Part shown: piece by piece, positions 6,415-21,552 of the stretch | How the letters are laid out: the number at the start of each line of letters is the position of its first letter | How positions within the stretch are numbered: the first letter of the stretch is position 1 | Source of the DNA: Mycolicibacterium smegmatis | GTDB lineage: Bacteria > Actinomycetota > Actinomycetes > Mycobacteriales > Mycobacteriaceae | Direction: 5' to 3' | DNA: 32,000 bases | Assembly (NCBI RefSeq): GCF_001457595.1 | Contig: NZ_LN831039.1 | Location: 6,390,001-6,422,000 of the forward strand | Made by a program: the position numbers and the translations under genes | The notes under the pieces: generated by a model | Told to the model about the DNA's origin: nothing | Seen by the model: the letters and a program-made list of their open reading frames with translations, nothing else | Database searches by the model: none

Positions 6415-6454
6415 TTTGCGTGACCTTTCCTATTTGGTCTAGCCAAAACAGGTG

Positions 6455-7828: not shown

Positions 7829-7859
7829 TCAACGCTGATATCCACTGCGGCGTGCCGGA

Positions 7860-7883: not shown

Positions 7884-7942
7884 GTCCCGCACGAGAAAAC
7901 GCCACGATCGAGCCACAACCGATCGACCACGGGAGGTGGCGG

Positions 7943-8353: not shown

Positions 8354-10100
8354 GACCGTCGACCGGCGGATCGGCTGGGACAAGCTGCCCGCGTGGCTCG
8401 GGATCAGTGTGCTGGTGGGGATCCGCGACGCGCTGCGCGAGCACAACCTCTTCGATTCCTACGAGGGCGACCCGCCGCGGCCTCAGACGCAGTACTCCCC
8501 GGCCGAGTACCTCACCAACCGCACGCCCGACGGCTCCTACAACGACCTGTCCGATCCGTCGATGGGCATGGCGAACACGCGCTTCGGCCGCAACGTCGCG
8601 CCGTCGAAGGGCCGCCCCGAGCAGATGCCGCACCTGATGGACCCCAACCCCCGGCTCATCAGCACCGAACTGCTGCTGCGCGACGAATTCCGCCCGGCCA
8701 CCACACTCAACGTGCTGGCCGCGGCGTGGCTGCAGTTCGAAACCCACGACTGGTTCAGCCACGGCACCGACGCCAATCGGATCCACAAGATCCCGGTGCC
8801 CGAGGGCGACCACGAGTGGAACGGCGCGACCATCGACGTACCCGCCACGCCTGCCGACCCGGATTCCGCGCCGGGCCACACGACGTTCATCAACCGCGAG
8901 ACCCACTGGTGGGATGCGTCACAGATCTACGGCAACAGCCCGCAGGCCCAGAAGCTGATCCGTACCGACTCGGACGACGGGAAGGTGCTCATCGACGGCG
9001 ACGGGTTCATCGGCGTCGCACCCGAGGTCATCAAGGCCTCCGGCGCGGCGGACGGCTGGTGGGTGGGCTCCGAGCTCATGGGCACGATCTTCATGCGCGA
9101 GCACAACGCGATCTGCGACCGGTTGCGTGCGGCGTACCCCGAGTGGACCGGTGAGCAGATCTTCAACAAGGCCCGCCTGATCAACGCGGCCCTGATCGCC
9201 AAGATCCACACCGTCGAATGGACCCCCGCGATCCTCGCCCATCCGACGCTGCACATCGGTATGCGCGCCAACTGGTTCGGCCTGGCCGGTGAAGCCGTCG
9301 GGAAACTGGTCGGACGGATCGGCACGAGCGATCTGATCAGCGGTATCCCGGGTTCGGACACCGAACACCACTCGGCCGCCTATTCGATCACCGAGGACTT
9401 CGTCACGGTGTACCGCATGCACCCGCTGATCCCCGACGACTACACCTTTTTGTCCCTGGCGGGAGATACTGCGCCACAAGAACTCTCGTTCACCGACCTG
9501 CACGGTGTGGCCAATGCCCGCGGTGTGCTCAAACGCCTGGGCATCGTGGACTGCCTGTACTCGCTCGGCGTCGCACATCCCGGCGCGGTCACGTTGCACA
9601 ACAGCCCGAAGTTCATGCGGCAGTTCCAGTCCGAGACGCACCTGATCGACCTGATCGCCGTCGACATCCTGCGCTCACGCGAGCGAGGTGTGCCGCGCTA
9701 CAACGAGTTCCGTCGTCAACTGCGCCTGAAGCCCGCGACGTCGTTCGAGGAGATCAGCGGCGGTGACCAGGCGACCGCGGACCGGATGCGCGAGATCTAC
9801 GGCGGCGACATCGAGAAGGTCGACACCATGGTCGGCATGTTCGGCGAGAAACTGCCGGCGGGCTTCGGGTTCAGCGACACCGCGTTCCGCATCTTCGTGC
9901 TGATGGCGACGCGCCGGCTCAAGAGCGACCGGTTCTACACCGTGGACTTCACACCGCAGGTCTACACACCCGAGGGCATGGCGTGGATCGCCGACAACAC
10001 CATGACGTCGGTGCTGCTGCGCCACTACCCCACGCTCGAACCGGTCCTGCGGAATGTGAAGAACCCGTTCGCGCCGTGGCCGCGGATGAGTCATGGATGA
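8313..10100 (+). CDS. Haem peroxidase / fatty-acid dioxygenase-like protein (animal haem peroxidase superfamily)
   Basis: ATG at 8313 with AAGGAGG at 8301-8307. Motifs 'WLQFETHDWF' (distal His region) and 'KIHTVEWTPAIL' (proximal His region) are typical of the peroxidase-cyclooxygenase superfamily. Confidence 0.75.
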   Translation: MRALLMRSFIKLSETVDRRIGWDKLPAWLGISVLVGIRDALREHNLFDSYEGDPPRPQTQYSPAEYLTNRTPDGSYNDLSDPSMGMANTRFGRNVAPSKGRPEQMPHLMDPNPRLISTELLLRDEFRPATTLNVLAAAWLQFETHDWFSHGTDANRIHKIPVPEGDHEWNGATIDVPATPADPDSAPGHTTFINRETHWWDASQIYGNSPQAQKLIRTDSDDGKVLIDGDGFIGVAPEVIKASGAADGWWVGSELMGTIFMREHNAICDRLRAAYPEWTGEQIFNKARLINAALIAKIHTVEWTPAILAHPTLHIGMRANWFGLAGEAVGKLVGRIGTSDLISGIPGSDTEHHSAAYSITEDFVTVYRMHPLIPDDYTFLSLAGDTAPQELSFTDLHGVANARGVLKRLGIVDCLYSLGVAHPGAVTLHNSPKFMRQFQSETHLIDLIAVDILRSRERGVPRYNEFRRQLRLKPATSFEEISGGDQATADRMREIYGGDIEKVDTMVGMFGEKLPAGFGFSDTAFRIFVLMATRRLKSDRFYTVDFTPQVYTPEGMAWIADNTMTSVLLRHYPTLEPVLRNVKNPFAPWPRMSHG

Positions 10101-10632
10101 CAAGCTCCACGGGATACCCCGCGTCGACCTGGAAACGCGGCCTCGCTGGAAACGCGACCTGGCCTGGTGGTTCGGCGGCAAGGTGCTGGCCACCGCGCGG
10201 GCGTCGGCGATCTGGCGCAAAATCGCGATGCCGTACGAGGTTCCGCTGATCAAGGCCACCGGTGGTCGGGCCCGCCTCAGCGTGGGAATCCCGATCGCCG
10301 TGCTGACCTCGACCGGTGCGCGCAGCGGCAAGACGCGCCAGACCGCGCTGGCGTACTTCACCGACGGTGACGATGTGGTGCTGATCGCGTCCAACTACGG
10401 TCAGGCCCGCCACCCCGGCTGGTATCACAACCTGCGGGCACACCCGGAGTGTGAACTGTATGTCGGGCGACGCGGTGGGCGGTTCGTCGCCCGCGAGGTC
10501 GATGGCCCTCAACGGGACCGGCTGTACGCGCTTGCCGCCAGCCGGCTGTATCCAGGCTGGGTTGCGTACGAGAAGCGGGCCGAGGGCGTGCGCCGCATCC
10601 CGGTCCTTCGGTTGACGCCCGCCGACCCATGA
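10093..10632 (+). CDS. Nitroreductase-family deazaflavin (F420)-dependent oxidoreductase, Ddn-like
   Basis: 'LTSTGARSGKTRQTALAYF..DGDDVVLIASNYGQARHPGWYHNLRAHP' matches the Ddn/FDOR-A family signature. The start overlaps the peroxidase stop (ATGGATGA). Confidence 0.75.
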   Translation: MDDKLHGIPRVDLETRPRWKRDLAWWFGGKVLATARASAIWRKIAMPYEVPLIKATGGRARLSVGIPIAVLTSTGARSGKTRQTALAYFTDGDDVVLIASNYGQARHPGWYHNLRAHPECELYVGRRGGRFVAREVDGPQRDRLYALAASRLYPGWVAYEKRAEGVRRIPVLRLTPADP

Positions 10633-10635
10633 AAA

Positions 10636-10660
10636 AACTCCCCACGTCAGGTGGGGAGTT
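10636..10660. terminator. Hairpin terminator (10-bp stem AACTCCCCAC / GTGGGGAGTT, 5-nt loop) flanked by an A-run on plus strand = T-run on minus strand
   Basis: Read directly. It lies 3 nt after the Ddn-like stop and 4 nt from the tRNA 3' fragment at attL. It would also terminate the minus-strand tRNA transcript in an uninterrupted locus. Confidence 0.6.
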
Positions 10661-10664
10661 CTTA

Positions 10665-10691
10665 TGGCGGTGGCGGAGGGATTTGAACCCT
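10665..10691. repeat. attL core: 27-bp copy of the tRNA-Ser 3' end (TGGCGGTGGCGGAGGGATTTGAACCCT)
   Basis: Identical to 21302-21328. The flanking bases differ on both sides. Confidence 0.85.
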
Positions 10692-10771
10692 ATTCAGCTA
10701 CCAGGTCAGAGGATCAAAAGCGTCTCTACCTGCATGCCGTCATAACTGGGGATCACCACGGTTACCTGTAA

Positions 10772-10802
10772 CCGTGGGCAAATTGTGGGCAGATTGTGGG
10801 CA
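10772..10802 (+). promoter_or_regulatory. Three 11-bp-phased direct repeats YYGTGGGCA (candidate arm-type integrase binding sites, attL arm)
   Basis: CCGTGGGCA (10772), TTGTGGGCA (10783) and TTGTGGGCA (10794). The same motif with the same phasing occurs at 21213-21243. Confidence 0.45.
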
Positions 10803-10829
10803 CGCGGCGTGTCGTCGACCGCTTGCCGC

Positions 10830-11258
10830 TCATACCCGTTCAGGCGCGCCCGGCTCGTACCGCATGACCACGGCGCGGTCGCGGCGCAGCGATAGCCACC
10901 ACGGGCCGTCGATTGCGGCCTGACGTTCGACGGCCTCCCATCGAGCAGTCAGCCTAACGAGCTGTTCCCAGGCTGGCCTTGTGCCGATGTCGCCGTGCAA
11001 GTGCACGGTTTTGAGCTTGTGTGTGATCGCAAGACTTGCCTCAGTCGGGCGGGTGCGGAGTCGCTTGTCATTGGTGACCACGATCCAACCCCGGTCACCG
11101 ACGACAGGTATCCAATGGGGATCCAAAATCCCGGCGTATAGAAGTTCATCCACTGGCGGGCGACTGAACCGCGCCGTGTCACGCCGCACCGCCACAAGCC
11201 CGTTACCTAGGCGCAGCAGGTTCTCGTCAACGACGTAGGTCACCTGGTCCAGGTCCAT
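10830..11258 (-). CDS. PIN-like / DUF5615-type putative toxin nuclease
   Basis: 142 aa. N-terminal acidic motif 'VVDENL' and 'WIVVTNDKRL', as in PIN-like Mut7-C/DUF5615 proteins. It starts 13 nt downstream of a DUF433-type gene. Confidence 0.5.
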   Translation of the reverse strand: MDLDQVTYVVDENLLRLGNGLVAVRRDTARFSRPPVDELLYAGILDPHWIPVVGDRGWIVVTNDKRLRTRPTEASLAITHKLKTVHLHGDIGTRPAWEQLVRLTARWEAVERQAAIDGPWWLSLRRDRAVVMRYEPGAPERV

Positions 11259-11271
11259 GCCCGTCGCCTGA

Positions 11272-11976
11272 CTACGCAGCCAGCTTGTACTTCTTGACGT
11301 AGTCGATGGCTGCCTGAACCTGCTCCATGCTCAGCCCGTAGTCGGCGGCGAGGTCTTCGTGGCGTTCCCCCGCGTTGGCCATCCCCGCGATTGTGGCCAC
11401 CGATACACGCCTTCCGATAAAGGTCGGCTGCCCGCTGTAGCGGTCGGGGCTGATCACGATCTCGGGGAAGTCACGATCAGGCCGTAGCTCGCTCACGACC
11501 TTCTCGCCCCGTTCGTCCTGCGCCAAGGAAGCGTGCAATATCAGCTCCCTGCCTGAGCCAAATAACAGCTGCTGGCCGGTGCGGACCACCATCTCATCCT
11601 CAGACAGACCGACCTCTTCGCCGCTGATCGTCAGGTCACGGGCATGGACGGCCAGATAGGGACGCAGGTGCGCTAGCGGATAGTCAAGGCCGTAAATACG
11701 GCGCAGCCCGTCGATAGCGGCGCGCAGCCGCGCAGTCGGGATGTTCAGGTTGCGGTACTCGGCGAGAATTCGCGTCTCCACGAACTCGCCCCACGTCGCC
11801 CATTCCGTGTCACGCGGCGCGACACGCAGAATCGGCGGGTAAGCGGTGCCGCTGCGCTGATAGCCGTTGATCCAGCGGCGGGCCGTGCCTGCCGAGAGGC
11901 CGATCAGCCTGTCTACCTCCGCATACAGGTAGACCTCGCGGTCGAGCATCGAGGTAACCGACATGCGCGCAAGCAT
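11272..11976 (-). CDS. HTH (MerR-like) + DUF433-domain protein, putative antitoxin/regulator
   Basis: N-terminal '[24 protein letters not shown]' (HTH). C-terminal '[46 protein letters not shown]' resembles DUF433. The start is uncertain (ATGs at 11976, 11964 and 11949). Confidence 0.55.
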
Positions 11977-12225
11977 GACACAGAGGTATCAGCCGAGACC
12001 GACAAAGATAGACAGAGGCGGACAACCCGCGTGTCAATGAAGCACAGTCACACCCACGTCGCGCCGTATGGGCCTGTGCTTGTCGGCTCCGCGACAAGCG
12101 CGCCGGTTGGGTCGCATGACCACCTCGTTGCACTTGCGAAAGCTGATGGAAACGACTGGCCAGAGAACGCTCTCGGAGGGCGGAGCGCCGTCGGGTAGCG
12201 GGCACGCAGTGCCTCGTCCCAGCGG

Positions 12226-15200
12226 CTACTCCCAGGCCCAATGGGGTACAGCCTCCAACCGCTTCTGTCGATCCCGACTCAGCTTCCCCTGGGCAAAAAA
12301 TCGCCGCTGGACATGAACCCATTGTCCGAGCTTCACGCCATTGACGACTTCCGAGCGGGGAATTCGGTCGGTCTTGTGCTGCTTCACATAGTTGACAAAC
12401 AACGCAAGATTGCCATCCCACACAGCAGCCTTGCTGTCCCATGCCCAGCCAGGCAACGCCTCCAGGCGCTCGCGTCGTTCCGGTGCAATTACGTCAGAGA
12501 CTGCGTCGTGTCGCTGGACACTGACCCATTGTCCGAGTCGTACTCCTTGTTCGACATGCCTCTGCGGCACACGCGCGTGTCCCTCCCGCGCAGTGAACTT
12601 CTCCAGCATCACGAACCTCTCCTCCCAGACATCGTGGGACAGGGTGGTCCAGGTCCACCCCGGCAGCTCCTCAAGCCTGCGCTGACGCGCGGGATCGAGC
12701 CGACCTTTGGCGTAGGTCCCCTTCTGGGTCGCAATCCAAAAACCGAGTCGGACGCCGTCGACGGTGTAACTCTGCGGGACCCGCGAGGTGCCATGTTCGG
12801 CGGTGTACTCCCGAAGGAGCATGAATGCTCGCTCCCATTTTTCGGCGTGCGGGTCCCAGGACCAGCCCGGCAGAGCCTCTAAGCGTCGCGCACGCTCTTC
12901 GCTAAGCGTCCCGGCCCGGTAGAAGTCCCGTTGCTTAGGCACCCATGAACCCAGCGGGTATCCGTCATGGTGATGCCTCGCGGGTACTTGAGCGGTGCCA
13001 TGATGCTCCGTGTAGTCGACAAGTTGGCGGAAACCCTCCTCCCACTTCGAATCGTTCACTGCCCACACCCAACCGGGGAGCGCCTCAAGCCGAGCTGCGT
13101 AGTCGGCGCGCAATTTGCCCTTGTTTTTCAGGGTGCGTTGCTGATTGACCCAGCCACCGATTCGAAAGCCGTCGGAATCCGAGGACTTTGTCGGTGCGCA
13201 GCTCCCATGTGCAGCTGCGTATTCCGCAAGCTTTTGGTAGTTGCCCTCCCACAAGGCATCGTGTATGCCCCATACCCAGCCAGGCAGTGCCTCCAAGCGG
13301 GCGGTCCGGTCCGGTCCTAACCGCCCCCTGGAAAACGACGAGCGCTGCGAGTAGGCCCACTTCCCGAGCTGGTATCCGTCCGCAGGGTCGACATATGTCC
13401 GCACCAATCGTGCCGTGCCGTGCGCCTCGGTGTACGCCTGAAGGCGTCGAAACCCTTCTTCCCAACGTGATTCGCGCGCTTCCCAAGCCCAGCCTGGTAG
13501 TGCCTCCAACCGTGCCTGACGTTCCTTGCTCATCTGGCCGTCGCGGTAGACCGTACGCTGGATGGTGGCCCATTGGCCTAGTTTGTAGCCCTCGGCGGAC
13601 TTGAACTTCTGCGCCACCATGGCGTCACCATGGCGCTGGACGTACTCCTGAAGGTGGCGGAAACCTTGCTCCCACTGGTCTGTGAGAGCGTCCCAAGTCC
13701 AGTCGGGGAATTCCTCAAGAAGGCGAGCACGAGCGGGATCAAGGTCGCCCCTATTGCGGTGGTATCGCTGTTGCGCCACCCACTGCCCAAGTCGGAGTCC
13801 GTCATATTTTTCCAATGCGGCTAATCGCGTATGGCCGTGCTCGGCGACGTACTTTTTCAGTTGCTCATACCAGAAGGGCCACTTGTCATCCCGCGTGCTC
13901 CACGTCCAACCGGGCAGTGCCTCTAACCGCTGTATCCGCTCTGCGGGGAGGCCCCCCTTCTTATATGCGGAACGTTGGGTAGTGACCCATGCGCCGACCT
14001 GAAATCCGTTGACCGTGGCGTCTTTTGAAATGAGAGCAGTACCGCTCTGCGCTACGTAATCTTGAAGCCTGGCGAAGCCTTCCTCCCACAGGTCGTCACG
14101 CGGATTCCACGTCCAACCAGACAGCTCCTCAAGTCGCAGTTGGCGTTCTTGCGATAGTTTCCCACTGTTGCGGTGTGATCTCTGCTTCGTCACCCAGGCC
14201 GCGAGCCTATTGTCGCCATCCAACGACGTGTACGAGGGACGGGCATGACCATGCTCAGCAACATGCTTTGTCAACAGCCCGAACCAGAACTCCCACGGTG
14301 CGGTGGTCGCATCCACCATATGGACCTTGAATGCGTTGACAAATTCTGTGCCCACAGTGGCTGGCACATCGAAGTGAATCTTGCTCGGAAGCCGAGGTTT
14401 GCTTCCCTTGCGTCCCATTTCCCGTCGCAGGGCGTCAAGATGCTCACCGAGTTCGGTGTCATGCGCTCTGAGAGCTTTGATGACATCCCAAACCGGTTTG
14501 AAGGCCGAGGAGTCCAGTGCGGCATCAGCATCTTCGTCGGGGTCGATAAACACAGGGATGACAACGGTGCCAATTGTTTTGGTCTCGGACTTTCGAATCG
14601 CGCGACCTACAGCCTGCACGATGTCCACCTCGGAGCGCCGCGGGTCGATGAAGGCCACGCCGTCGAGACTGGGCACATCAACGCCCTCGGCCAAACAGCG
14701 GGCATTGGCAAGCAGGCCGCGCTCACCGTCACCGAGTCTCTTCAGATGCTGGAGCAGGACATGGCGTTCGCCCGCCGACATCTCCCCCGAGGCGTGCTGG
14801 GACCACAAGCTACCTCTAGGGCGTTGCCGGGCAGGCATCCACTCCAGCACGCCGGGCATCGACTCAGCGAACTTTCTGGCCGCCCTGACGCGGCTGTGGA
14901 AGCTGATCAACCGACGCAGATCGTACTTGCGCATCGCCTTGGCCAAGCCGATTTGCCCCGCCAGTGAACGAGCATCCGTAGGCGTCTCGTCACTCAGCCT
15001 GACAGGTAGACCGCGTTTAGCCCAATCGCGGTAGGTCGCGTCATCGACACCGATGATTGCCACCTGATAATCAGTGAGTAGCTTGCGTTCGATGGCCTCC
15101 GCAAAGCTCAGCCGATGAAACACGTTCCCGAATTTGATCTGGTCGTCCATCGACGCGACCTCGTAGTCCGCCTCTTGAGCCTGGCGAAGTATGCGCCCGG

Positions 15201-16239
15201 TGAAGTAGCGCGGCGTCGCCGTCATGAATAGCCGCCGCTTCGCCCTGATCGCCTTGGGGTTGAGCACGGTGCCGAAGTCGGAGGACACCGGCCCAGCGAC
15301 TCGGTGTGCCTCGTCGGCGATCACTAGATCGAACTGGGGCACCCGGCCCAACTTGAAAGCGGCGGCGATCTGGGGTGAGGACTGGTAGGTGGCGAAGACG
15401 ACGCGTGGCCCCGACCGCTTCCGCAGAAACGCCGCGATAACTTCCGGGTCAGTGTCCGCTGGCTCTCCGAGATAGCTGGTGTGGGAAATCGCTGCGTCCT
15501 CGTCAAGCGCGACGGTCTCATCACTGCACACCGGCAGCGCATCGAAAGGACGTTTGATGTTGGCGGTTCGCCACTCCTTCATCGTCTGCTTCAGCAGCGA
15601 TAGTGATGGCACCAAGACGAGGGTGCGTGTGGCGGCCAATTCCTCTTTGATGAACCACGCCGTCAGGGTCTTGCCGGTGCCGCACGCCATGATCAGCTGC
15701 CCACGATCAGCGGTCTTGAACCCCTCGATCACGTCCCTGATCGCGTCCTGTTGGTAATCGTGTGGCTCGCGCGGCTCGGGCACTCTGGCTGGACGCAGGT
15801 CTGTCAGCTTGGCTGGCCACTCGGTGAAGTCCTCTAGTTCTGTCAGACCGATGAAGGTGACCCCGAGGTCCTCCATCGTGCGCTGTGCGGTTGGAGACAA
15901 CTTGTCGGTCGTCGCCATCAGCATTCGGTAAGCGAAGTCGAACCGGCCCGCTTCCGCGAGGAACTTGTTCACCTCGGTTCTGGTCACCGTGTTCTCGTAT
16001 GCTTTGGCCTGAATAGCCCACAGCCGGCCTTCGGTGTCTTCCGCAACGAGGTCGATGCCAGCATCGATACCCCAGTTACCTGGCCAGTCCTTCCACAACC
16101 ACACCCGACGCAGCAACTGCTTGTATTGGCCTGTGTCGTTTTCGAGGAACCATTTGCAGACGATCTCGAACTGATCGCCCTTCCTCTTCCGGTTGACCGG
16201 GTCGAACTGTGCCTTGAGATCGCTGAACGTCCCCCCCAT
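12226..16239 (-). CDS. Mrr-like PD-(D/E)xK nuclease + SF2 (ResIII/DEAH) helicase + 10 tandem helicase-associated (HA) domains
   Basis: ATG at 16239; the ORF-track 5' extension is Arg/Pro-rich and was rejected. Nuclease motif 'GIDLVAEDTEGRLWAIQAKAY'. Helicase motifs are I 'ACGTGKT', II 'VIADEAHRV', III 'MTATPR' and VI 'QAVGRAIR'. These are followed by 10 repeats of ~69 aa ending in 'RLEALPGWxW'. Confidence 0.85.
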   Translation of the reverse strand: MGGTFSDLKAQFDPVNRKRKGDQFEIVCKWFLENDTGQYKQLLRRVWLWKDWPGNWGIDAGIDLVAEDTEGRLWAIQAKAYENTVTRTEVNKFLAEAGRFDFAYRMLMATTDKLSPTAQRTMEDLGVTFIGLTELEDFTEWPAKLTDLRPARVPEPREPHDYQQDAIRDVIEGFKTADRGQLIMACGTGKTLTAWFIKEELAATRTLVLVPSLSLLKQTMKEWRTANIKRPFDALPVCSDETVALDEDAAISHTSYLGEPADTDPEVIAAFLRKRSGPRVVFATYQSSPQIAAAFKLGRVPQFDLVIADEAHRVAGPVSSDFGTVLNPKAIRAKRRLFMTATPRYFTGRILRQAQEADYEVASMDDQIKFGNVFHRLSFAEAIERKLLTDYQVAIIGVDDATYRDWAKRGLPVRLSDETPTDARSLAGQIGLAKAMRKYDLRRLISFHSRVRAARKFAESMPGVLEWMPARQRPRGSLWSQHASGEMSAGERHVLLQHLKRLGDGERGLLANARCLAEGVDVPSLDGVAFIDPRRSEVDIVQAVGRAIRKSETKTIGTVVIPVFIDPDEDADAALDSSAFKPVWDVIKALRAHDTELGEHLDALRREMGRKGSKPRLPSKIHFDVPATVGTEFVNAFKVHMVDATTAPWEFWFGLLTKHVAEHGHARPSYTSLDGDNRLAAWVTKQRSHRNSGKLSQERQLRLEELSGWTWNPRDDLWEEGFARLQDYVAQSGTALISKDATVNGFQVGAWVTTQRSAYKKGGLPAERIQRLEALPGWTWSTRDDKWPFWYEQLKKYVAEHGHTRLAALEKYDGLRLGQWVAQQRYHRNRGDLDPARARLLEEFPDWTWDALTDQWEQGFRHLQEYVQRHGDAMVAQKFKSAEGYKLGQWATIQRTVYRDGQMSKERQARLEALPGWAWEARESRWEEGFRRLQAYTEAHGTARLVRTYVDPADGYQLGKWAYSQRSSFSRGRLGPDRTARLEALPGWVWGIHDALWEGNYQKLAEYAAAHGSCAPTKSSDSDGFRIGGWVNQQRTLKNKGKLRADYAARLEALPGWVWAVNDSKWEEGFRQLVDYTEHHGTAQVPARHHHDGYPLGSWVPKQRDFYRAGTLSEERARRLEALPGWSWDPHAEKWERAFMLLREYTAEHGTSRVPQSYTVDGVRLGFWIATQKGTYAKGRLDPARQRRLEELPGWTWTTLSHDVWEERFVMLEKFTAREGHARVPQRHVEQGVRLGQWVSVQRHDAVSDVIAPERRERLEALPGWAWDSKAAVWDGNLALFVNYVKQHKTDRIPRSEVVNGVKLGQWVHVQRRFFAQGKLSRDRQKRLEAVPHWAWE
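12229..14295 (-). repeat. Coding tandem array: 10 HA-domain repeats (65-71 aa each, 689 aa total)
   Basis: I counted the repeats in the translated ORF. The consensus is W-E-x-x-F-x-x-L-x-x-Y-x-x-x-H-G ... G-x-x-L-G-x-W-V-x-x-Q-R ... R-x-x-R-L-E-A-L-P-G-W-x-W. Confidence 0.8.
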
Positions 16240-16454
16240 GGGGACGAGATTAGACGCGAAAACCGCAGACTTGTCCGAAAGGGAAGCCAGCGCGCAGCGC
16301 GCCCGCGACTCGATGGCGGGGGGAGGAGGTCTCCCCCGGGGCAAATGTCGGCTACAGGCACCGCTGCCCGCCGTTGGCGGGTGACCACGACGGGCAGCGG
16401 CACCACTGTCCCGGAGGGTTGGAGTAGCCGGTTGGCGACACCTCCGGGCAGGTC

Positions 16455-17318
16455 TTAGCTTCCCTCCATGCCGACGCGCACGACGGCCTGCTGATGGGGG
16501 AACCCGATGCCGACGCGCAGCACGCAGCGGATGCCCGTGCGGTCGCTGGAGAACGCGAACGAGCTGTCGGCGATCACCTCGGCGTCCTGCCGGATCACGA
16601 CGAAGCACTTGTCCCGGGGGATGAGCCACATTGCGCCAGCGGTGACGGCGGGCGAGCTGTACAGCGGCACGCCGAGCACGCTGCGGCCCGTGGCTCGCGT
16701 CGCGTCAGGTCCAAGTAGCGGCTGGTTGCTGTCGGCCGTGACTTTGCTTGTCGCCACGGCCAGGACATCGGTCGGGCTGCCGACCAAGGCCATGTTGGAC
16801 AAGCCGTCCACGACGTTGGTGGCGAGCACGCCGACGTTCTCGGCGAGGCTGACTGCCTCGGCGAACACGTCCAAGCTGCCGTCAAAGGTGAGCGTGGTCT
16901 CCTGCACGTTGGTCAAGCTTTCGACACCGTCCGGGCCGTTGGCCACGCTGTCACCGAAATAGGCCGCGTCCAGCTTGATGCGGAGGTCTCTCACCAGACC
17001 CTCACCGACCACCTGCAACGCGCTCGGATCGGAGTCGGCCAGGAGTTCGTTGGAGACCACAACGAGCGACTTGAGGCCGGCCGGAGTAACGACCAGCTCT
17101 TCCAAATCCGGGTCAGTGACCGGGATTTCCTGTCCTTCCGCTACCCAATTGTTCTGTGCGTCAGTGACAACGATGGGAAACCTTGTGCTGTGCGAAGCGG
17201 TCTCCACGACGGTGGAGACCTGCGTGGCGACAGACGCGCGGATGAGCGGCTGCACAACGAGGTCTTGGACATCTTGGGGCGCCAGTATGGCCGCGCCGTT
17301 AGCGGTGAGCAAGGGCAT
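16455..17318 (-). CDS. Phage major capsid protein, HK97-fold family
   Basis: 287 aa. It has the typical 'LKSLVVVSNELLADS' block, 'DAAYFGD' and a C-terminal region like Phage_capsid family members. RBS GGAGG lies 6 nt upstream of the ATG at 17318. Confidence 0.75.
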   Translation of the reverse strand: MPLLTANGAAILAPQDVQDLVVQPLIRASVATQVSTVVETASHSTRFPIVVTDAQNNWVAEGQEIPVTDPDLEELVVTPAGLKSLVVVSNELLADSDPSALQVVGEGLVRDLRIKLDAAYFGDSVANGPDGVESLTNVQETTLTFDGSLDVFAEAVSLAENVGVLATNVVDGLSNMALVGSPTDVLAVATSKVTADSNQPLLGPDATRATGRSVLGVPLYSSPAVTAGAMWLIPRDKCFVVIRQDAEVIADSSFAFSSDRTGIRCVLRVGIGFPHQQAVVRVGMEGS

Positions 17319-17447
17319 GAATGCCTCCGAAGGTGAGCGTGGTCTGATGTGACTTGCCCGGTGACCGCAGATCAGGCCGGGATGCCCTCGGGGCGTACGT
17401 GCAGCGGATGCGGGCCACGGGCCGGAACACCAACCGCGACAGCCAGT

Positions 17448-17948
17448 CTAGCGGCCTTTGAGTGCCTTACTCCAGGACGCTTTACCGGGCGGCTGTCCGC
17501 TGCCAGTGCCTTGCTGCCGGTTCGGTTGGGGCGGTCGGCCCTTGGGTGGCACGCGGAACTCTCGTGCGGTGGCTGTGACGGCCTCGGACAACTTGGTGCC
17601 GTCGATCAAACCGTCGTCACCGACGAGGCTGTCTACGGTGTGCCCGGCTGCTGTGAGTAAGCGCGGGTCTAGACCTGCTGCCTGCACAGCGTTCTCCACG
17701 ATGGCCGCGCGGGTGCGTTGCAGGGTGTCGCGCAGCTCGTCCAGCTCGCGGCGCGCCTCGTTGCGCTCGCGCCGATACCTGGCCTCCCGGTTCGCCCTGC
17801 CGCCCTCGTCCTGATTTTGCGTCGTCTCGTCAAGTTCGCTCGTCGGCGTATGGTCGTCATCGGTGCCGGTCGGTGCGTTTTCGCCGGCCGTGTGGCTGTC
17901 GGGCGGATTGTCTTGTCGTGCCGGCGTTTTCGTGTCAGAGATGGTCAT
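17448..17948 (-). CDS. Putative capsid scaffolding protein
   Basis: It lies immediately upstream of the capsid gene. It has a charged coiled-coil-like core 'REARYRRERNEARRELDELRDTLQRTRAAI' with low-complexity ends. The ATG at 17948 has GGAGGA upstream and an ATGA overlap with the preceding ORF. Confidence 0.5.
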   Translation of the reverse strand: MTISDTKTPARQDNPPDSHTAGENAPTGTDDDHTPTSELDETTQNQDEGGRANREARYRRERNEARRELDELRDTLQRTRAAIVENAVQAAGLDPRLLTAAGHTVDSLVGDDGLIDGTKLSEAVTATAREFRVPPKGRPPQPNRQQGTGSGQPPGKASWSKALKGR

Positions 17949-18247
17949 GGGTTTTGTTCCTCCAGGGTTGGCCATGTTCTGCGGCGGACGCCGTTGGACA
18001 GCCATTCCACGACGGTCGTCAGGTCGTCGGGCACCGTGTAGCCGATATGGCGCAGTAGTGCACGTTCGGTGGGCGTGGCGGGCCGCGTTCGGGTCACGCT
18101 GGCGCGGTAGTGCCGGTTCTCGTAGTCGGCATATGCCGTGGCATCCTCGGCACGCTGCACGGCGTCGGGCAAGTGAGCCAACACTAGTAGGCCGCGTCGG
18201 TGGTCGGGTCTGTGCTCGCCGACGCCGGTCAAGTCAATTTCGGTCAT
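17945..18247 (-). CDS. Hypothetical protein (element operon)
   Basis: 100 aa with ATGA overlaps at both ends (18244-18247 and 17945-17948). I recognised no motif. Confidence 0.45.
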   Translation of the reverse strand: MTEIDLTGVGEHRPDHRRGLLVLAHLPDAVQRAEDATAYADYENRHYRASVTRTRPATPTERALLRHIGYTVPDDLTTVVEWLSNGVRRRTWPTLEEQNP

Positions 18248-18666
18248 GGCAGAGCCTCCGCTACGGCTCGGTCTAGGTCGTCTTGCTGGTGATCGTGAAC
18301 CGCAACTTCTGGATGAAGCTGGACATCTCGACGAACTCCCCGGAGTTCATGGTCTGCAACTACTACCGCATGTTCGTCACGATCTTCTAGTTCTGCGCGT
18401 ACACCACCTCGGAACTCGCCCGCGACCACGCCGACAAGATCAGGCTCAGAGTCAGCCCACCGGCCACACTCGGCCTTAGCGGGACAACGGCGACACACGG
18501 CAATGCACTCGGCAATCCGAATCCGGCTGCCGCGCTCAGCCTCATGGAAACGGCCACGCACGCCGACACACGCGGCACCGTCCAAGCGCGGCACCCCGGT
18601 CAGCACAACGGCAAGTAGACCGACCACGCCCGACGCCGGGACGCGGGCCGGGTGAACACGGCTCAC
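18244..18666 (-). CDS. WhiB-like (Wbl) Fe-S transcription factor with acidic/His-rich C-terminal extension
   Basis: Four-Cys pattern C-x24-C-x2-C-x5-C in 'AACVG...VCRRCPAKAECGRWA', followed by 'GVVAGE' in place of the GxWGG turn. Its 5' end shares 18663-18666 with the end of the upstream ORF; the start is uncertain. Confidence 0.6.
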   Translation of the reverse strand: MSRVHPARVPASGVVGLLAVVLTGVPRLDGAACVGVRGRFHEAERGSRIRIAECIAVCRRCPAKAECGRWADSEPDLVGVVAGEFRGGVRAELEDRDEHAVVVADHELRGVRRDVQLHPEVAVHDHQQDDLDRAVAEALP

Positions 18667-19151
18667 GGTGCGCCCTCCAGCCCGTGACGCCGACGCAACA
18701 CCGCGAACAGCGCGCCGCTTTGGTCTCCGGCGAGATAGGCGACGACGTGCCCGGCGATGACAGCGGCGGCGTGCGCGATGTCCAGGTCTGCGAACTCGGC
18801 CATGCTCATCAGCTCGTTACAGCGTCCGATGGCACCGCGTTCGTACGCCTCGGCTAGGGCGATGGCGGCAAGGCTGAGGCGTGCTTGCTCGTCGGGTGCG
18901 CCGGTCGCGGTGGCCAGCGCGTGCACATCGGCGCGCAACTTGTCGAAGCGTACGGCGGCGTCGGGACCGGCCAACAAACCGGCCAGCGTGCGCACGGCGG
19001 CGATACGCAGCCACGCCGATTCACTTGCGGAGTCGGCCATGACGTTCGACGCTGCGTCAGCGAGGCCGTTGGCAGCAAGCTCAGCGGCACGGACGACAAC
19101 GGCGAACACTGCGGCCGGTGCCTCGTCGTCCCATCCCGGCTCAGTCCTCAT
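18663..19151 (-). CDS. Hypothetical Ala-rich protein (element operon)
   Basis: 162 aa. Its ends share 4 nt with each neighbouring ORF (19148-19151 and 18663-18666). No motif recognised. Confidence 0.45.
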   Translation of the reverse strand: MRTEPGWDDEAPAAVFAVVVRAAELAANGLADAASNVMADSASESAWLRIAAVRTLAGLLAGPDAAVRFDKLRADVHALATATGAPDEQARLSLAAIALAEAYERGAIGRCNELMSMAEFADLDIAHAAAVIAGHVVAYLAGDQSGALFAVLRRRHGLEGAP

Positions 19152-19693
19152 GCGTACTCCTCAAAGGGATTCGGTCCAGCGCCGCGCCACTTCGGCAACT
19201 CGGTGAGCGACGGAGGACCGTGCAAACCGGCAGCCGTTGGTACCCGCTCCCCTTCATTGCCTGCCTTCCTTCCTTCCTGTGCTGTCCCCGGGGACGCTTC
19301 CCCGGGACTGTCCCCGTCGTCATCCCCGGGACTGTCCTCGTCGTCGGCACCCCCCGCCAACTTCTCAGCGCGCTGCTTGGCCTTCTTCACCCGCTCCCGC
19401 TGCCGAATCCTCTCCAAGGTCTCCAGCTCGCTGCGGGCGGTCTGGGTGGCCGCGTAGTCGGTGATCAACCAGCCGTCCGACTGCGGGGTGAACAGTCCGG
19501 CGTCCACGAACGCCTTAGCGGCGTTGGCCGACCAATGCGGGATGAGTCCAACGTCCTCGCGTTCGATCCGGCCATCGGTGCGGTTGGTGACCGACCACAG
19601 CAGCGCGTTGACGAACGTCCTGTAGTGCTCGGCTGAGAGCCGTTGCAGGCGGCGGTCATTCAACCACCGTTCCGGAATTCGGGCGTCGGTCAC
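19148..19693 (-). CDS. Hypothetical protein with acidic low-complexity C-terminal half (possible DNA-binding / replication-organiser role, unproven)
   Basis: GTG at 19693 lies 4 nt after the Xis-like stop. The N-terminal ~100 aa are globular ('WLNDRRLQRLSAEHYRTFVNALLWSV'). A coiled-coil-like basic stretch and a D/E/G/P-rich tail follow. Confidence 0.45.
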   Translation of the reverse strand: MTDARIPERWLNDRRLQRLSAEHYRTFVNALLWSVTNRTDGRIEREDVGLIPHWSANAAKAFVDAGLFTPQSDGWLITDYAATQTARSELETLERIRQRERVKKAKQRAEKLAGGADDEDSPGDDDGDSPGEASPGTAQEGRKAGNEGERVPTAAGLHGPPSLTELPKWRGAGPNPFEEYA

Positions 19694-19697
19694 GGTG

Positions 19698-19901
19698 TCA
19701 GCGGCCCGCGTTCTGCACGTTGGCGGCGATGAACTCGTCCAGATCGGCGAGTCTGTAGCGGACGCTGCGGCCGATTCGCACGTACTTCGGGCCTTCACCC
19801 AAGTAGCGCATATTCGCCAAGCGCGCGGGGGTAGTGCTCAGGTACTCGGCGGCCTGGTCAGTTTTGATCAGCCCTGAGATTCGTTCTTCAGCCACGATCA
19901 C
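19698..19901 (-). CDS. Excisionase / AlpA-like helix-turn-helix protein
   Basis: 'TDQAAEYLSTTPARLANMRYLGEGPKYVRIGRSVRYRLADLDEFI' is the typical Xis/MerR-superfamily HTH_17 layout. The start is uncertain (GTG at 19901 or 19895; the ORF-track start at 19991 is a TTG). Confidence 0.6.
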   Translation of the reverse strand: MIVAEERISGLIKTDQAAEYLSTTPARLANMRYLGEGPKYVRIGRSVRYRLADLDEFIAANVQNAGR

Positions 19902-20065
19902 CAGCGTAATACCGAGCGTGGCACGCTTCCCGTGAGAGACGTTGCGCACGAACAGTTTTCGGCGCCTTCGTAGGTTGACAGTTGCTGACAATGGCTGCCA
20001 GAGATACGACAGACGCTGACAGCGAATCCGAGTGCGGCGACAGCGAAATTGGTTCGGCGTGTTGC

Positions 20066-21181
20066 TCAGTTCGGCGTGTCGCGCACTACCTCCGGGTCCG
20101 TCTTGTGCCCGCCACGCGCACGATCCAGCGCGGCCGCAACGTCGTCAAGGTCGGCGTCGAACAGGTCGGCGTAGGTGTCCAGCGTGACCTTGGCGGACTT
20201 GTGGCCAAGCATCCGCTGAAGCGCCAACACGTTCACGCCTGCCGAGACAGCCAGCGACGCGCAGGTGTGGCGGAGATCGTGCGGAGTGACGGCCTGCACC
20301 CCGGCGCGCTTCACGGCGGCAGCGAACCATCCCCCGTCCGACTTCGGGCGTGGCAGATACCCGTCACCGGCCGCGCTGAACACCAGATCGTTGGGAGTCT
20401 TGCCCGCGCACAGCACCGACAGCTCATCAAGTACGAACGCCGGAACCGGCACCGACCGCGCCGTACGGCCCTTGGTCGGCCCTACAGCGTGTTCTACGCC
20501 GAGCTGCACGGCGTTCTCGTGGATCGACAGCCGACGCCGCAGGAACTCCACGTCACGCACGCGCAGCGCGACAGCCTCACCCCACCGGATGCCCGTGTAG
20601 GCCAGCGTGAGCACCAGCGCGCGATGCTGGCCGCACTCGTCGGCCAGCCGCGCCACGTCGTCGGCTGACAAGTAGACGTGGCGGCGCGCCGTCTTACGCG
20701 GCAGATTGCCGACACCCTTGGCCGGGTTGGCCACCAACCGCCTGCCCTTCACGGCGTCGGCCAGGATGCCCGACAGGACGCCGTGCGCGCGCAGCACCGT
20801 GGTCGAACCCGCGCCACCGCGCACCATGCCGGTGATCCACGCCTCTACGCCGAGCTGGTCAATATCAGCGACGGTCGCCGACGCCCATCGCGGGGCGACG
20901 TGGACCCGCCACGCTGACTCCAGCATCCGGTAGTGAGAACGCGCGGTCGCGTGTTCCTTACGCGCCAACCAGTCGGCCGACAGCTCGCCCACCGTCACCC
21001 GTCCGAGCGACGGGGCGACGTACTCGCCGCGCATCTTGGAGACCTCCACCTCGGCGGCGAACGCCTCGGCCTCCCGCTTGGTCTTGAATCCGCGCCGGTC
21101 GGTCTGTCGGCGGTCGGGGGTGCGGTAGCGCACGCGGTACCGCTTGCCGTGCGCCGTCTGGTACTGGACAACCTGAGCCAT
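20066..21181 (-). CDS. int: Tyrosine recombinase (phage integrase family)
   Basis: ATG at 21181 ('MAQVVQYQTAHGKRYRVRYR', an arm-binding-type N-terminus). The C-terminal catalytic signature is 'TPHDLRHTCASL...LGHKSAKVTLDTYADL' (H-x-x-R ... H ... Y). It is adjacent to the tRNA. Confidence 0.9.
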   Translation of the reverse strand: MAQVVQYQTAHGKRYRVRYRTPDRRQTDRRGFKTKREAEAFAAEVEVSKMRGEYVAPSLGRVTVGELSADWLARKEHATARSHYRMLESAWRVHVAPRWASATVADIDQLGVEAWITGMVRGGAGSTTVLRAHGVLSGILADAVKGRRLVANPAKGVGNLPRKTARRHVYLSADDVARLADECGQHRALVLTLAYTGIRWGEAVALRVRDVEFLRRRLSIHENAVQLGVEHAVGPTKGRTARSVPVPAFVLDELSVLCAGKTPNDLVFSAAGDGYLPRPKSDGGWFAAAVKRAGVQAVTPHDLRHTCASLAVSAGVNVLALQRMLGHKSAKVTLDTYADLFDADLDDVAAALDRARGGHKTDPEVVRDTPN

Positions 21182-21212
21182 GCGCCGCACGGTACTCACG
21201 AAGCGCGACAAG

Positions 21213-21243
21213 TTGTGGGCAAAATGTGGGCAAACCGTGGTCG
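21213..21243 (+). promoter_or_regulatory. 11-bp-phased direct repeats TTGTGGGCA / ATGTGGGCA / CCGTGGTCG (candidate arm-type integrase sites, attR arm)
   Basis: Read directly. Motif, orientation and phasing match 10772-10802. The third copy is degenerate. Confidence 0.4.
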
Positions 21244-21301
21244 GACGGCTTGCCAGCAAACGCAAAAACCGCCCTTACCTGCGCTGGCAGGCGGGCGGCT
21301 T

Positions 21302-21328
21302 TGGCGGTGGCGGAGGGATTTGAACCCT
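21302..21328. repeat. attR core: 27-bp repeat forming the 3' end of the intact tRNA-Ser
   Basis: Identical to 10665-10691. Confidence 0.85.
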
Positions 21329-21392
21329 CGGTGGGGGGTTACCCCACACACGCTTTCGAGGCGTGCTCCTTAGGCCGCTCGGACACGCCACC
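21302..21392 (-). tRNA. tRNA-Ser (anticodon CGA), 91 nt with encoded CCA
   Basis: I folded the reverse complement by hand: acceptor GGTGGCG/CGCCACC, anticodon arm CACGC-CTCGAAA-GCGTG (CGA), long variable arm TGTGGGGTAACCCCCCAC, T-arm GAGGG-TTCAAAT-CCCTC, discriminator G, CCA. Confidence 0.9.
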
Positions 21393-21485
21393 GCGCAGTA
21401 GCTTACCGGGAGAGCGCCGGAGGCCATAATCGCGCTGCTCATCACGGTGATCACCGAGCGTGCGGCCACGGCGGAAAAATGGCCC

Positions 21486-21541
21486 GCAACCCGCCAAGAG
21501 TGCACACTCGATCGAGCAACCCGCCAAGAGTGCACACTCGA
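21486..21541. repeat. Two tandem copies (30-bp period) of GCAACCCGCCAAGAGTGCACACTCGA
   Basis: The 26-nt copies at 21486-21511 and 21516-21541 are identical. Each contains the near-palindrome GAGTG-CA-CACTC. The repeat lies between the tadA stop and the tRNA-Ser 5' side. Confidence 0.7.
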
Positions 21542-21552
21542 CCACACGAAAC

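Follow-up and report, generated by a model that had tools for sequence, protein, structure and literature searches.

A tRNA-Ser(CGA) integrative element of Mycolicibacterium smegmatis, probably a capsid-encoding phage satellite of the candidate PICI type

A segment of about 10.6 kb in the chromosome of M. smegmatis lies between two identical short repeats, one of them part of a serine tRNA gene, and carries genes for an integrase and a capsid protein. What kind of element is it, and could it move between cells? The stretch of DNA analysed (the window) comprises 32,000 nucleotides of contig NZ_LN831039.1 (assembly GCF_001457595.1, positions 6,390,001 to 6,422,000), and the features of the segment are listed in Table 1. 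We put at about 0.7 the probability that the segment, 10,637 bp long, is a site-specific integrative element of the type known in mycobacteria as "candidate PICI", or capsid-encoding phage satellite. The evidence for this reading, and for the explanations that compete with it, is discussed below.

Table 1. Features of the element and its borders, in window positions
Feature	Position	Strand	Basis
Host bidirectional terminator hairpin, outside the element, directly left of attL	10637..10661		fold
attL core, orphan tRNA-Ser 3' end, 27 bp	10665..10691		repeat and tRNA search
Putative arm-type integrase sites, P' arm, three copies	10773..10802	+	repeat count
PIN_10 (PIN-like) protein, 142 aa, cargo	10830..11258	-	PF18478, E 1.2e-11
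DUF433/HTH protein, 234 aa, putative antitoxin or regulator of the PIN_10 protein	11272..11976	-	PF04255, E 5e-14
Cargo protein, 1337 aa: Mrr-type nuclease, SF2 (ResIII/DEAD) helicase, 10 HA repeats	12226..16239	-	Pfam
HK97-fold major capsid protein (MCP), 287 aa	16455..17318	-	PF05065, E 7e-23; phrog_10
Head scaffolding-like protein, 166 aa, predicted coiled middle	17448..17948	-	family PHROG matches, EPIP similarity
u100, conserved 100-aa core protein	17945..18247	-	in 8/16 delimited elements
WhiB-like ORF (maximal extent), absent from public annotations of the genome	18244..18666	-	PF02467, phrog_472
u162, conserved 162-aa protein, predicted all-helical	18663..19151	-	positional homologues
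Small replication-initiator-like (Rep-like) protein, 181 aa	19148..19693	-	phrog_2447, phrog_3926
HTH_17 Xis/AlpA-like protein, 83 aa (65 aa from the start at 19895)	19698..19949	-	PF12728, E 1.5e-9
Tyrosine integrase, 371 aa, N-terminal arm-DNA-binding domain	20066..21181	-	PF00589, E 3e-20; PF14657; phrog_1, E 6e-68
Putative arm-type sites, P arm: TGTGGGCA x2, 11 bp apart	21214..21232	+	repeat count
Element-borne terminator hairpin and U-run, abutting the tRNA CCA end	21261..21301	-	fold
Intact tRNA-Ser(CGA); 3' 27 nt (21302-21328) = attR core	21302..21392	-	ARAGORN, Rfam

Boundaries and insertion site

The 27-mer TGGCGGTGGCGGAGGGATTTGAACCCT occurs only twice in the window, at the two att cores, with 0 mismatches and a chance expectation of 0 for a second copy (100 shuffles). 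Identity stops at 27 bp on either side; the copies are spaced 10,637 bp start to start, and the element with both cores measures 10,664 bp. ARAGORN and Rfam find one tRNA, whose 3' end, including CCA, is the right repeat. Neither predicts one at the left repeat, so this repeat is an orphan fragment. The perfect repeat, complete on the right and orphaned on the left, is thus as the initial annotation had described it, and so is the empty site that it predicted, with the left flank fused to the tRNA. The comparison took assemblies carrying the identical left-flank gene, and most of those with an identical left flank have an empty site at the predicted junction. The left flank is joined directly to the tRNA 3' end in L001 and 17 similar places, in L003 and in L004, with 0 to 7 mismatches to the window (0 in L001). 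In the indexed collection this exact capsid protein turns up in only 36 blocks and the flanking gene in 667; the element with this protein always lies at the same tRNA-Ser site. The island is carried by a minority of conspecific assemblies. GC content is 58-62% at the 1337-aa cargo gene and 65-69% in the flanks.

The host hairpin left of attL folds at -20.0 kcal/mol (z -4.5) with a U-run on the minus strand, and at -18.7 kcal/mol on the plus strand; in the empty site of L001 the host terminator hairpin comes directly after the tRNA. The hairpin at the other border (GCCGCCCGCC...GGGCGG, then UUUUU; -28.7 kcal/mol) is the element's own terminator and stands in for the host terminator displaced by the insertion. 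The island is inserted precisely in the 3' end of tRNA-Ser(CGA), with the tRNA regenerated and a new terminator supplied.

The tRNA appears to have been used repeatedly. The 27-bp (or a 25-bp) core bounds related elements of ~10 kb in M. phlei, M. intracellulare, a MAG and Nocardia brevicatena; related elements at the site adjoin genes of the tadA/Rv3753c family, and the tadA neighbour in the window is a member of the Pfam family named Rv3753c. In M. persicum this tRNA-Ser site is taken by an element with related integrase and capsid genes, a DUF3631 replication protein and a ~450-aa capsid, and its layout presumably resembles that of phiRv2. The hot spot proposed at the outset is supported, the site being occupied in other species and in Nocardia. 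The accompanying statement about M. tuberculosis is partly borne out: Rv3751 is described as a probable phage integrase (PMC7276699), and the tadA neighbour is of the Rv3753c family. The excisionase label of Rv3750c found no confirmation; PMC5175181 treats this protein as the antitoxin that pairs with the PIN-domain protein Rv3749c.

Integration, capsid and cargo genes

The integrase has the Pfam domains Phage_integrase and Arm-DNA-bind_4 and all the catalytic motifs (GIR(W), TKGR, HDLRH, GH and Y(ADL)), with the R...K...HxxR...H...Y residues at 197, 236, 301, 326 and 335. Its homologues number more than 4000, and identity is 72-93% in the best 120. The HTH_17 protein encoded next to it matches phrog_66, "excisionase and transcriptional regulator", in agreement with the early identification of a tyrosine integrase adjoining the tRNA and of an Xis-like gene. 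The window has 8 copies of the putative arm site TGTGGGCA, where 0.96 would be expected, and they cluster at both ends of the element. On the P' arm the order is CGTGGGCA / TGTGGGCA / TGTGGGCA, 11 bp apart, and the TGTGGGCA sites of both arms share one orientation. L007, with an integrase 92% identical, has tandem arm-site pairs at equivalent positions in both arms; L090 and L092 have single exact copies. The Rep-like protein matches PHROG "replication initiation protein" families weakly (E 9e-11 and 1e-9), has no Pfam match, and contains no primase or helicase domain detectable by Pfam or PHROG, unlike relatives of the element, which carry primase/helicase genes.

All called genes are open, and those from HTH_17 to scaffold closely abut, as the initial annotation had argued: the xis/rep gap is 4 bp, rep/u162 and u100/scaffold overlap by 4 bp, and the uncalled WhiB-like ORF overlaps each neighbour by 4 bp. 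This ORF scores 25.1 bits with PF02467 against a cut-off of 23.6, and a WhiB gene is called at the same position in the relatives L079, L083 and L096. Homologues of u162 occupy the same position in L095, L096, L090, L083, L007 and L079; the protein matches nothing in Pfam, PHROG or PADLOC, and its single-sequence AF2 model (pLDDT 47) is too low for use. The u100 protein has 22 homologues, and its AF2 model (pLDDT 84) has no fold match in PDB or BFVD.

The MCP has 233 homologues, mostly of ~280 aa, and the scaffold-like family has 478 cluster representatives, nearly all of ~150-190 aa. Among 50 scaffold-like members scanned, ~11 match PHROG "head scaffolding protein" families; the window protein itself has no such match. 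Searches with Pfam, PHROG and PADLOC found no terminase, portal, protease, tail or lysis gene in the element, so that the phage structural genes first proposed are confirmed in part, by one clear structural gene, that of the MCP, and a scaffold-like gene. Identity as a prophage was considered and rejected, these two being the only detectable structural genes.

The remainder of the element is cargo. The 1337-aa protein has ten HA domains (E 1e-161) with Mrr_cat_2, ResIII and Helicase_C in Pfam, and its N-terminal 600 aa match the PADLOC models for type IIG (442 bits) and type I REase-MTase (299 bits). These models are matched in the nuclease-helicase half only, the methyltransferase part being absent, and the protein is a candidate restriction-like defence protein. 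The pairing of the two genes near attL suggests that the PIN_10 protein is the putative toxin of a two-gene module. No complete PADLOC-defined system is present in the cargo, and DUF433 and PIN_10 have no PADLOC match; the island probably carries anti-phage cargo. Relatives carry ShosA, a type II restriction-modification pair, a capP/RmrA-like M78 peptidase, AbiV-HEPN and PycTM. The M. phlei element at the same site has a backbone 89% identical in nucleotides, as against 80% for the host flank, and a wholly different cargo, in which alignment is confined to the last ~150 bp beside attL. Among the delimited elements, nearly every gene beyond the MCP is a singleton, and the slot after the capsid gene is variable and often holds defence genes.

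An element family and its known counterparts

Capsid loci of this kind number 74 across Actinomycetota, and 15 of them, in addition to that of the window, are delimited by repeats derived from tRNA or tmRNA genes. The delimited elements span 8.1-10.7 kb (mean 9.77 +/- 0.74 kb), and the universal core of the 16 is integrase, scaffold and MCP. The capsid/scaffold module defines a family of ~8-11-kb tRNA/tmRNA-bounded elements in Actinomycetota. Metagenome contigs of 10-11 kb were considered as free forms of the element and rejected, since their ends are att repeats or host genes.

Gram-negative PICIs and SaPIs are site-specific islands of 10-15 kb that carry, in one direction, int, an AlpA/Xis-like HTH gene, replication, morphogenesis and accessory genes. 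Classical PICIs have genes for a small terminase and for proteins that redirect capsid size but no MCP of their own, whereas the M. smegmatis element has an MCP and a scaffold without detectable terS or primase-helicase. The core by which SatelliteFinder recognises PICIs is int, alpA, pri-rep, terS and a capsid-morphogenesis gene; int and an alpA-like gene (HTH_17/phrog_66) are present in the element, and neither a Pfam or PHROG terminase match nor a homologue of the EPIP terS (see below) was found. The cfPICIs encode an HK97-fold MCP, from which they form small capsids of their own, and take the remaining functions from a helper; they also encode portal, protease or scaffold, connectors, terminases and HNH, and of this full head and packaging set the element has the MCP and scaffold-like genes only. 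The phiRv elements have long (~475 aa) capsid proteins with protease and terminase genes, and phiRv1 has a serine integrase. In gene order, site-specific integration and a defence-rich accessory region the element is like the PICIs (de Sousa et al. 2023, PMC10085698), a study in which the cfPICIs were named. The phiRv1 and phiRv2 elements of M. tuberculosis, regarded as PICI-like (PMC10085698, PMC10654092), resemble it by description in being ~10 kb with integrase, Xis, replication and capsid genes.

[quoted passage not shown] Those with a tyrosine integrase lie in tRNA genes with attL/attR junctions, some carry helicase or scaffold genes, and those with a divergent capsid escape SatelliteFinder; the survey gave four examples with a capsid tree and did not show mobilisation (PMC10654092). 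The element has all that this operational definition names: integrase and MCP, no terminase, portal or tail, and a length of 10.6 kb. The island is thus of an already described kind of small "integrase + capsid" element. Independently of that survey, the present analysis describes the M. smegmatis element with its tRNA-Ser(CGA) site, the spread of the 280-aa capsid/scaffold module across Actinomycetota, and the defence-cargo slot.

Extracellular Prophage-Inducing Particles (EPIPs) of Mycolicibacterium aichiense were isolated as free small-capsid particles that depend on a helper prophage (bioRxiv Dec 2025, PMC12822802; GenBank OR387110-OR387121). Their genomes are 10.9-11.1 kb, against 10.6 kb for the window element, which is known in integrated form only. 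Adjacent scaffold (~160 aa) and capsid (~275 aa) genes lie in the same order in both, about two thirds along the integrated map. The 161/156-aa proteins encoded directly upstream of the EPIP capsid genes are 34% identical to the window scaffold (E 2e-5), and EPIP MCPs are ~40% identical to other members of the window capsid family. With the window MCP itself the identity is only 26% (blastp E 2e-19; tblastn against the phage collection E 2e-13), a low value that counts against the satellite reading. The EPIPs differ in having a serine integrase; their small terminase, head-to-tail adaptor, stopper and 651-aa "tape measure" protein have no homologue in the window, and the WhiB-like, u100 and u162 proteins of the window have none in EPIPs.

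Competing explanations and significance

The satellite-type reading is favoured because the att repeats are perfect, the empty site is exact, and the genes run from integrase to MCP with no other virion gene detected. It draws further on the recurring family backbone and size, the swapping of cargo, the conserved arm-site pairs and the supplied terminator, as well as on the EPIP particles (PMC12822802) and on the bioinformatic definition of the same class (PMC10654092). In such an element, integrase, phased TGTGGGCA arm sites and the HTH_17 protein would excise a 10.6-kb circle, on which the small Rep-like protein would begin replication. Scaffold and capsid protein would form small heads fit for ~10 kb, and a helper phage would provide portal, terminase, tail and lysis functions. 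The region that separates the capsid gene from the far att site would serve as a swappable cargo bay, whose Mrr-nuclease/helicase/HA protein and DUF433/PIN_10 pair probably guard host and element from other phages. The data are consistent with an intact island, which would depend on a helper and may be currently active. Several findings count against the satellite reading: a small terminase, HNH, head-tail adaptor and recognisable pac/cos site, found in some relatives, were not found in the element; its replication gene is a weak PHROG match of 181 aa where relatives have primase/helicase genes; no repressor was identified; and no sequenced phage resembles it in nucleotide sequence, hence no pointer to a helper. 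Nor was an excised, circular or packaged form observed.

Capsid-assembly interference is a known strategy of satellites (PICIs, P4). It lends some weight to an alternative that we consider unlikely, though less so than the others: a defence island that moves, or once moved, by its integrase alone, with capsid and scaffold proteins that no longer package and may poison phage head assembly or have another non-transfer role. The missing terS, pac or cos signal fits such an island, as does the share of cargo with defence-like domains, which makes up about half of the element. However, the tight sizes of ~10 kb and the universal retention of intact MCP and scaffold in distant taxa argue for a packaging constraint, the higher conservation of backbone (89%) than of host flanks (80%) between M. 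smegmatis and M. phlei suggests horizontal spread, and the EPIP relatives form their own small particles (PMC12822802).

Decay of a full-size temperate prophage at tRNA-Ser, with terminase, portal, tail and lysis genes deleted, is improbable. It would account for the one or two remaining virion genes and the small replication gene, but the att repeats are perfect and every gene is open. At least 16 elements, each delimited independently, have the same compact order and ~8-11 kb size although they come from different genera and occupy different tRNA/tmRNA sites, a pattern that random decay would not yield. A backbone shared by M. phlei and M. smegmatis with different cargo, the lack of nucleotide similarity to known phages, and the packaging of related 11-kb genomes as such (PMC12822802) also speak against it. 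That the 27-bp identity is a chance or duplicated tRNA fragment, unrelated to the integrase and enclosing ordinary chromosome, can be dismissed: the exact empty-site junction in conspecifics rules it out, no match is expected by chance, related elements elsewhere in other species have this core at their borders, and GC content falls inside the element.

The satellite-type reading can be carried further, to a proposal that we regard as possible and advance tentatively. The family may be distinct, Actinomycetota-wide, minimalist capsid-forming satellites whose own virion parts are a ~280-aa capsid and a ~160-aa scaffold only; u100 and u162, which are lineage-specific and lack a known fold match, and the WhiB-like regulator would capture helper portal and terminase and reprogramme the host, and the M. 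smegmatis copy would be active and mobilisable into the empty attB of laboratory strains by one among thousands of sequenced mycobacteriophages.

Mycobacterial satellite-like islands have been catalogued, and their experimental study consists of one preprint, of 2025, in M. aichiense. The bearer of the present copy, M. smegmatis, is also the standard host for the very large collection of mycobacteriophages, and in most of its assemblies examined the attB is identical and empty. It could be tested in this host which phages help the element, whether capsid protein and scaffold alone give small heads, and how DNA is packaged without a small terminase of the element's own. The integrase/attP pair could give a new integration vector for tRNA-Ser(CGA), a site whose conservation reaches from Mycobacterium to Nocardia. 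With a bearing on phage host range, the Mrr-helicase-HA protein and the DUF433/PIN_10 pair are candidates for determinants of phage resistance, and the variable slot after the capsid gene is a hunting ground for new actinobacterial defence genes.

An island at tRNA-Ser(CGA) that is absent from most assemblies

The 27-mer TGGCGGTGGCGGAGGGATTTGAACCCT occurs in two exact copies in the window, at 10665-10691 (attL) and 21302-21328 (attR), spaced 10,637 bp apart; 100 shuffles gave 0 matches. ARAGORN and Rfam both find tRNA-Ser(CGA) (21302-21392, minus strand) as the sole tRNA. The right repeat lies inside this intact gene and is therefore its T-arm, acceptor and CCA end, and the left copy is an orphan fragment, as the initial annotation had described. 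Sequence identity of the copies ends exactly at the repeat edges. GC content is 0.58-0.65 in the element interior, against about 0.67-0.70 in the flanks.

Empty sites were sought through the left-flank gene (10093-10632, F420H2-dependent reductase), looked up by exact protein sequence. One locus (L002, CP082846.1) is identical to the window. In most other places the left flank is joined directly to the tRNA (L001 and 17 similar loci, L003, L004), and the junction reads ...GGTGGGGAGTTCTTA/TGGCGG...CCCT/CGGTGGGG.... The left flank differs from that of the window by 0 mismatches in L001, 1 in L003 and 7 in L004. Collection blocks that index the exact capsid protein number 36, versus 667 for the flank gene; all of the 24 contigs read have it at tRNA-Ser(CGA), together with the same cargo. 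The empty-site variant that the initial annotation had proposed to look for thus exists, as a presence/absence polymorphism, and its overall interpretation, a real integrative element at tRNA-Ser, was correct. It is essentially certain that the island is mobile, site-specific and polymorphic within the species.

Excision would restore attB as ...GGTGGGGAGTTCTTA-core-CGGTGGGGGGTTACC..., and the excised circle would carry attP as ...GGCAGGCGGGCGGCTT-TGGCGGTGGCGGAGGGATTTGAACCCT-ATTCAGCTACCAGG.... No excised form was seen among the 10-11-kb contigs of the capsid search. Two of these contigs, L083 and L079, were rejected as excised circles, having no terminal overlap: the two tRNA-Met fragments in which L083 ends show that its assembly broke at the att repeats, and L079 ends in host genes.

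Repeats of TGTGGGCA with 11-bp phasing cluster about 80-100 bp inside both element ends (8 in the window versus 0.96 expected). Tandem pairs stand at equivalent positions in both arms of L007, a MAG element whose integrase is 92% identical, and single exact copies occur in elements of M. intracellulare. These repeats are putative arm-type integrase sites. In empty strains a bidirectional hairpin terminator follows the tRNA; insertion displaces it, and the element has its own strong hairpin and U-run directly after the tRNA CCA. The arm-site-like repeats and the element-borne terminator fit an element adapted to tRNA insertion. A promoter/terminator consensus scan within the element did no better than shuffles.

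To the right of the tRNA lie genes for a homologue of TadA and for a protein of the Rv3753c-named Pfam family, an arrangement that agrees with synteny to Rv3752c/Rv3753c of M. tuberculosis. The corresponding M. tuberculosis position was initially thought to carry an excisionase gene and an integrase fragment (Rv3750c/Rv3751). This is supported in part: the literature gives Rv3751 as a probable phage integrase (PMC7276699). An excisionase function of Rv3750c could not be confirmed; it is treated as the putative antitoxin partner of the PIN-domain protein Rv3749c (PMC5175181). This pairing may loosely echo the HTH-plus-PIN ends of the window element and of its M. persicum relative. Between tRNA-Ser and tadA (21456-21545), a unit of ~24-30 bp, AACCCGCCAAGAGTGCACACTCGA, is present in two copies in the window, and the empty site L001 (10700-10880) has three copies and ~60 extra bases; copy number therefore varies between strains, independently of the island. 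The left flank (2067-10632) codes for a diol/glycerol dehydratase, whose large and medium subunits are fused, and its reactivase, as well as for a WS/DGAT wax-ester synthase and a protein of the animal-haem-peroxidase family. At its 3' end the peroxidase gene runs 8 bp into the start of the F420H2 reductase gene.

Backbone and cargo genes

Every gene of the element is on the minus strand, ordered from the tRNA inward; gene limits in the window were taken from public gene calls. The integrase next to the tRNA and the Xis-like gene noticed initially are there. The claim of phage structural genes holds for the major capsid and scaffold-like proteins and goes no further: terminase, portal, protease, tail and lysis genes were not detected in the element.

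Genes of the island in the window, from the tRNA inward
Feature	Coordinates	Strand	Remark
Tyrosine integrase with arm-binding domain	20066-21181	-	domain match
HTH_17 Xis/AlpA-like protein	19698-19949	-	
181-aa protein	19148-19693	-	match to phage replication-initiator PHROGs
u162, conserved unknown, 162 aa	18663-19151	-	
WhiB-like ORF	18244-18666	-	absent from public annotation
u100, conserved unknown, 100 aa	17945-18247	-	
Scaffold-like protein, 166 aa	17448-17948	-	
HK97-type major capsid protein, 287 aa	16455-17318	-	
Mrr-nuclease / SF2-helicase protein, ten HA repeats, 1337 aa	12226-16239	-	
DUF433 protein	11272-11976	-	
PIN_10 protein	10830-11258	-	

Four Cys residues of the WhiB-like ORF are spaced as in WhiB, and its score exceeds the Pfam gathering cut-off. 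The ORF occupies a 415-bp gap that is uncalled publicly in the M. smegmatis and M. phlei copies, and is annotated in relatives. A single-sequence AF2 model of u162 was discarded (pLDDT 47). The C-terminal part of the Rep-like gene contains a near-perfect tandem 23-bp repeat (19299-19345, 24-bp spacing), which encodes an acidic SPGDD-type repeat and could equally be an iteron-like DNA feature.

The cargo, between the capsid gene and attL, is dominated by the 1337-aa protein. Over its N-terminal 600 residues it scores 442 bits against the type IIG REase-MTase model of PADLOC and 299 bits against the type I model. The match is to the nuclease-helicase half, and the ten HA repeats replace the methyltransferase part. 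It is taken here as a candidate restriction-like enzyme, possibly modification-dependent. In the nucleotide sequence the HA repeats give a period of about 207-210 bp, and their part of the gene (12230-14150) has the lowest GC of the window (0.58-0.61); low GC and periodicity suggest an origin separate from the backbone. DUF433 and PIN_10 resemble a two-gene module of toxin-antitoxin type; the pair matches no PADLOC model. Among plasmids, a single HA-domain gene fragment was the only near match to the cargo half.

A family with exchangeable modules in Actinomycetota

An element of 10,371 bp in M. phlei (L095) has the shared backbone, the tRNA-Ser site and the 27-bp core. Its integrase-to-capsid half is 89.0% identical to the window in nucleotide sequence, versus 80.2% for the adjacent chromosomal genes. 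The cargo half does not align except for the last ~150 bp by attL, and encodes an NYN protein plus two proteins that each have a partner: a type II methylase and a capP/RmrA-like M78 peptidase. The core of the window recurs in L007, which has a ShosA-like gene (E 2e-56), and in M. intracellulare (L090-L092), where a 9.74-kb element with an AAA_25 replication gene carries an SDH-protease and a GAF protein as cargo. At the tadA-proximal tRNA-Ser of M. persicum, the integrase is 75% identical, the replication gene is of the DUF3631 type and the capsid protein is longer (~450 aa). Since related elements lie at tRNA-Ser(CGA) in several taxa, the site is a recurrent target across genera, the hot spot envisaged in the initial annotation.

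M. obuense (L096) shares the morphogenesis block of the window, with an 87% identical capsid protein, and has a type II restriction-modification pair as cargo. Its integrase is a serine integrase, and it is inserted in a Tad ATPase gene; integration modules have therefore been exchanged within the family. The capsid/scaffold/u100/WhiB block and the serine integrase lie at 4240-14636 (L096/L097), and the Tad-pilus T2SSE ATPase gene is split into 196-aa and 206-aa halves. The slot after the capsid gene behaves as defence hot spots do in other satellites.

Capsid homologues number 233, mostly of ~280 aa. The capsid alignment, scanned against one genome from each species, gave 74 loci, in hosts that include Mycobacterium, Mycolicibacterium, Nocardia, Rhodococcus, Dietzia, Corynebacterium, Saccharomonospora, Isoptericola and Actinomyces. 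Exact repeats that derive from a 3' tRNA or tmRNA segment (Ser, Arg, Met, Val, Pro, Leu, Tyr) delimit 15 of the 74; these and the window measure 8.1-10.7 kb (mean 9.77 +/- 0.74 kb). Protein clustering, the only step to use a GC3-based gene caller, gave a universal core of integrase, ~160-aa scaffold-like protein and capsid protein. Frequent additions to it are u100, an Xis-like protein and a primase/helicase, and genes downstream of the capsid gene are nearly all singletons. Pfam and PHROG were used to scan 132 non-core proteins. Among the 25 commonest families listed are replication genes (AAA_25, DUF3631, Prim-Pol), regulators (HTH_31, HTH_3, HTH_17, WhiB), occasional HNH and head-tail adaptor genes, and cargo (HEPN_AbiV, PycTM, DNA methylase); a rare virion gene may lie beyond these 25 in a single element. 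Two capsid-gene matches and integrases less than 7 kb apart in L049 (a MAG contig, 3100-10900) and in L073 suggest tandem or adjacent family elements.

The PICI-type elements reported in Mycobacterium by de Sousa et al. (2023; PMC10085698) are mainly phiRv1/phiRv2-like, and a prophage survey by the Hatfull laboratory explicitly defines "candidate PICIs" as regions with an integrase and a capsid gene (PMC10654092). When the window capsid was compared with phage records by tblastn, twelve "Mycolicibacterium phages" of 10.9-11.1 kb were found. These are EPIPs, M. aichiense satellites that were obtained as particles with small capsids and that depend on and induce prophage HerbertWM (December 2025 preprint, PMC12822802). 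Like the window, EPIPs have adjacent scaffold-like and capsid genes, and both are homologous (scaffold 34%, E 2e-5; capsid 26%, E 2e-19); EPIP capsids are ~40% identical to other family members. Unlike the window, which has a homologue of none of these, EPIPs have a serine integrase, terS, adaptor, stopper and "tape measure" gene. The u100 and u162 families gave hhalign probabilities of <=3% against each EPIP protein, terS, adaptor and stopper included. EPIP small terminase homologues are found in six loci (L047, L044, L033, L066, L046, L020) and not in the window. In L033 (11123-11386) the small terminase directly follows the capsid gene, the position of EPIP terS, and in L023 (10834-12480) a large 548-aa gene, likewise right behind the capsid gene, has the position of the EPIP "tape measure" gene. 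The family thus forms a gradient from minimal to better-equipped satellites. The island is a further example of an already described kind of element.

A helper-dependent satellite as the best-supported reading

We consider the best-supported reading, with a probability of roughly 0.7, to be a satellite that depends on a helper and packages itself in small heads of its own making. It is supported by the gene content, the narrow size range, the capsid/scaffold pair that remains intact across taxa, the mosaicism of backbone and cargo, and the precedent of the EPIPs. It is weakened by the minimal replication gene and the lack of an observed excised form, and because no terS, pac or cos was found in the element and neither a repressor for it nor a helper was identified; when 50,697 phage records were searched with the backbone by blastn for hints of a helper or of cos, short integrase patches were all that matched. 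The main rival is a defence island, in which the capsid genes would serve interference and not transfer. A decayed prophage is unlikely.

As a candidate satellite the island is tractable, with an empty attB in most assemblies of a model mycobacterium, and it points to a widespread actinobacterial family with a slot for defence cargo.
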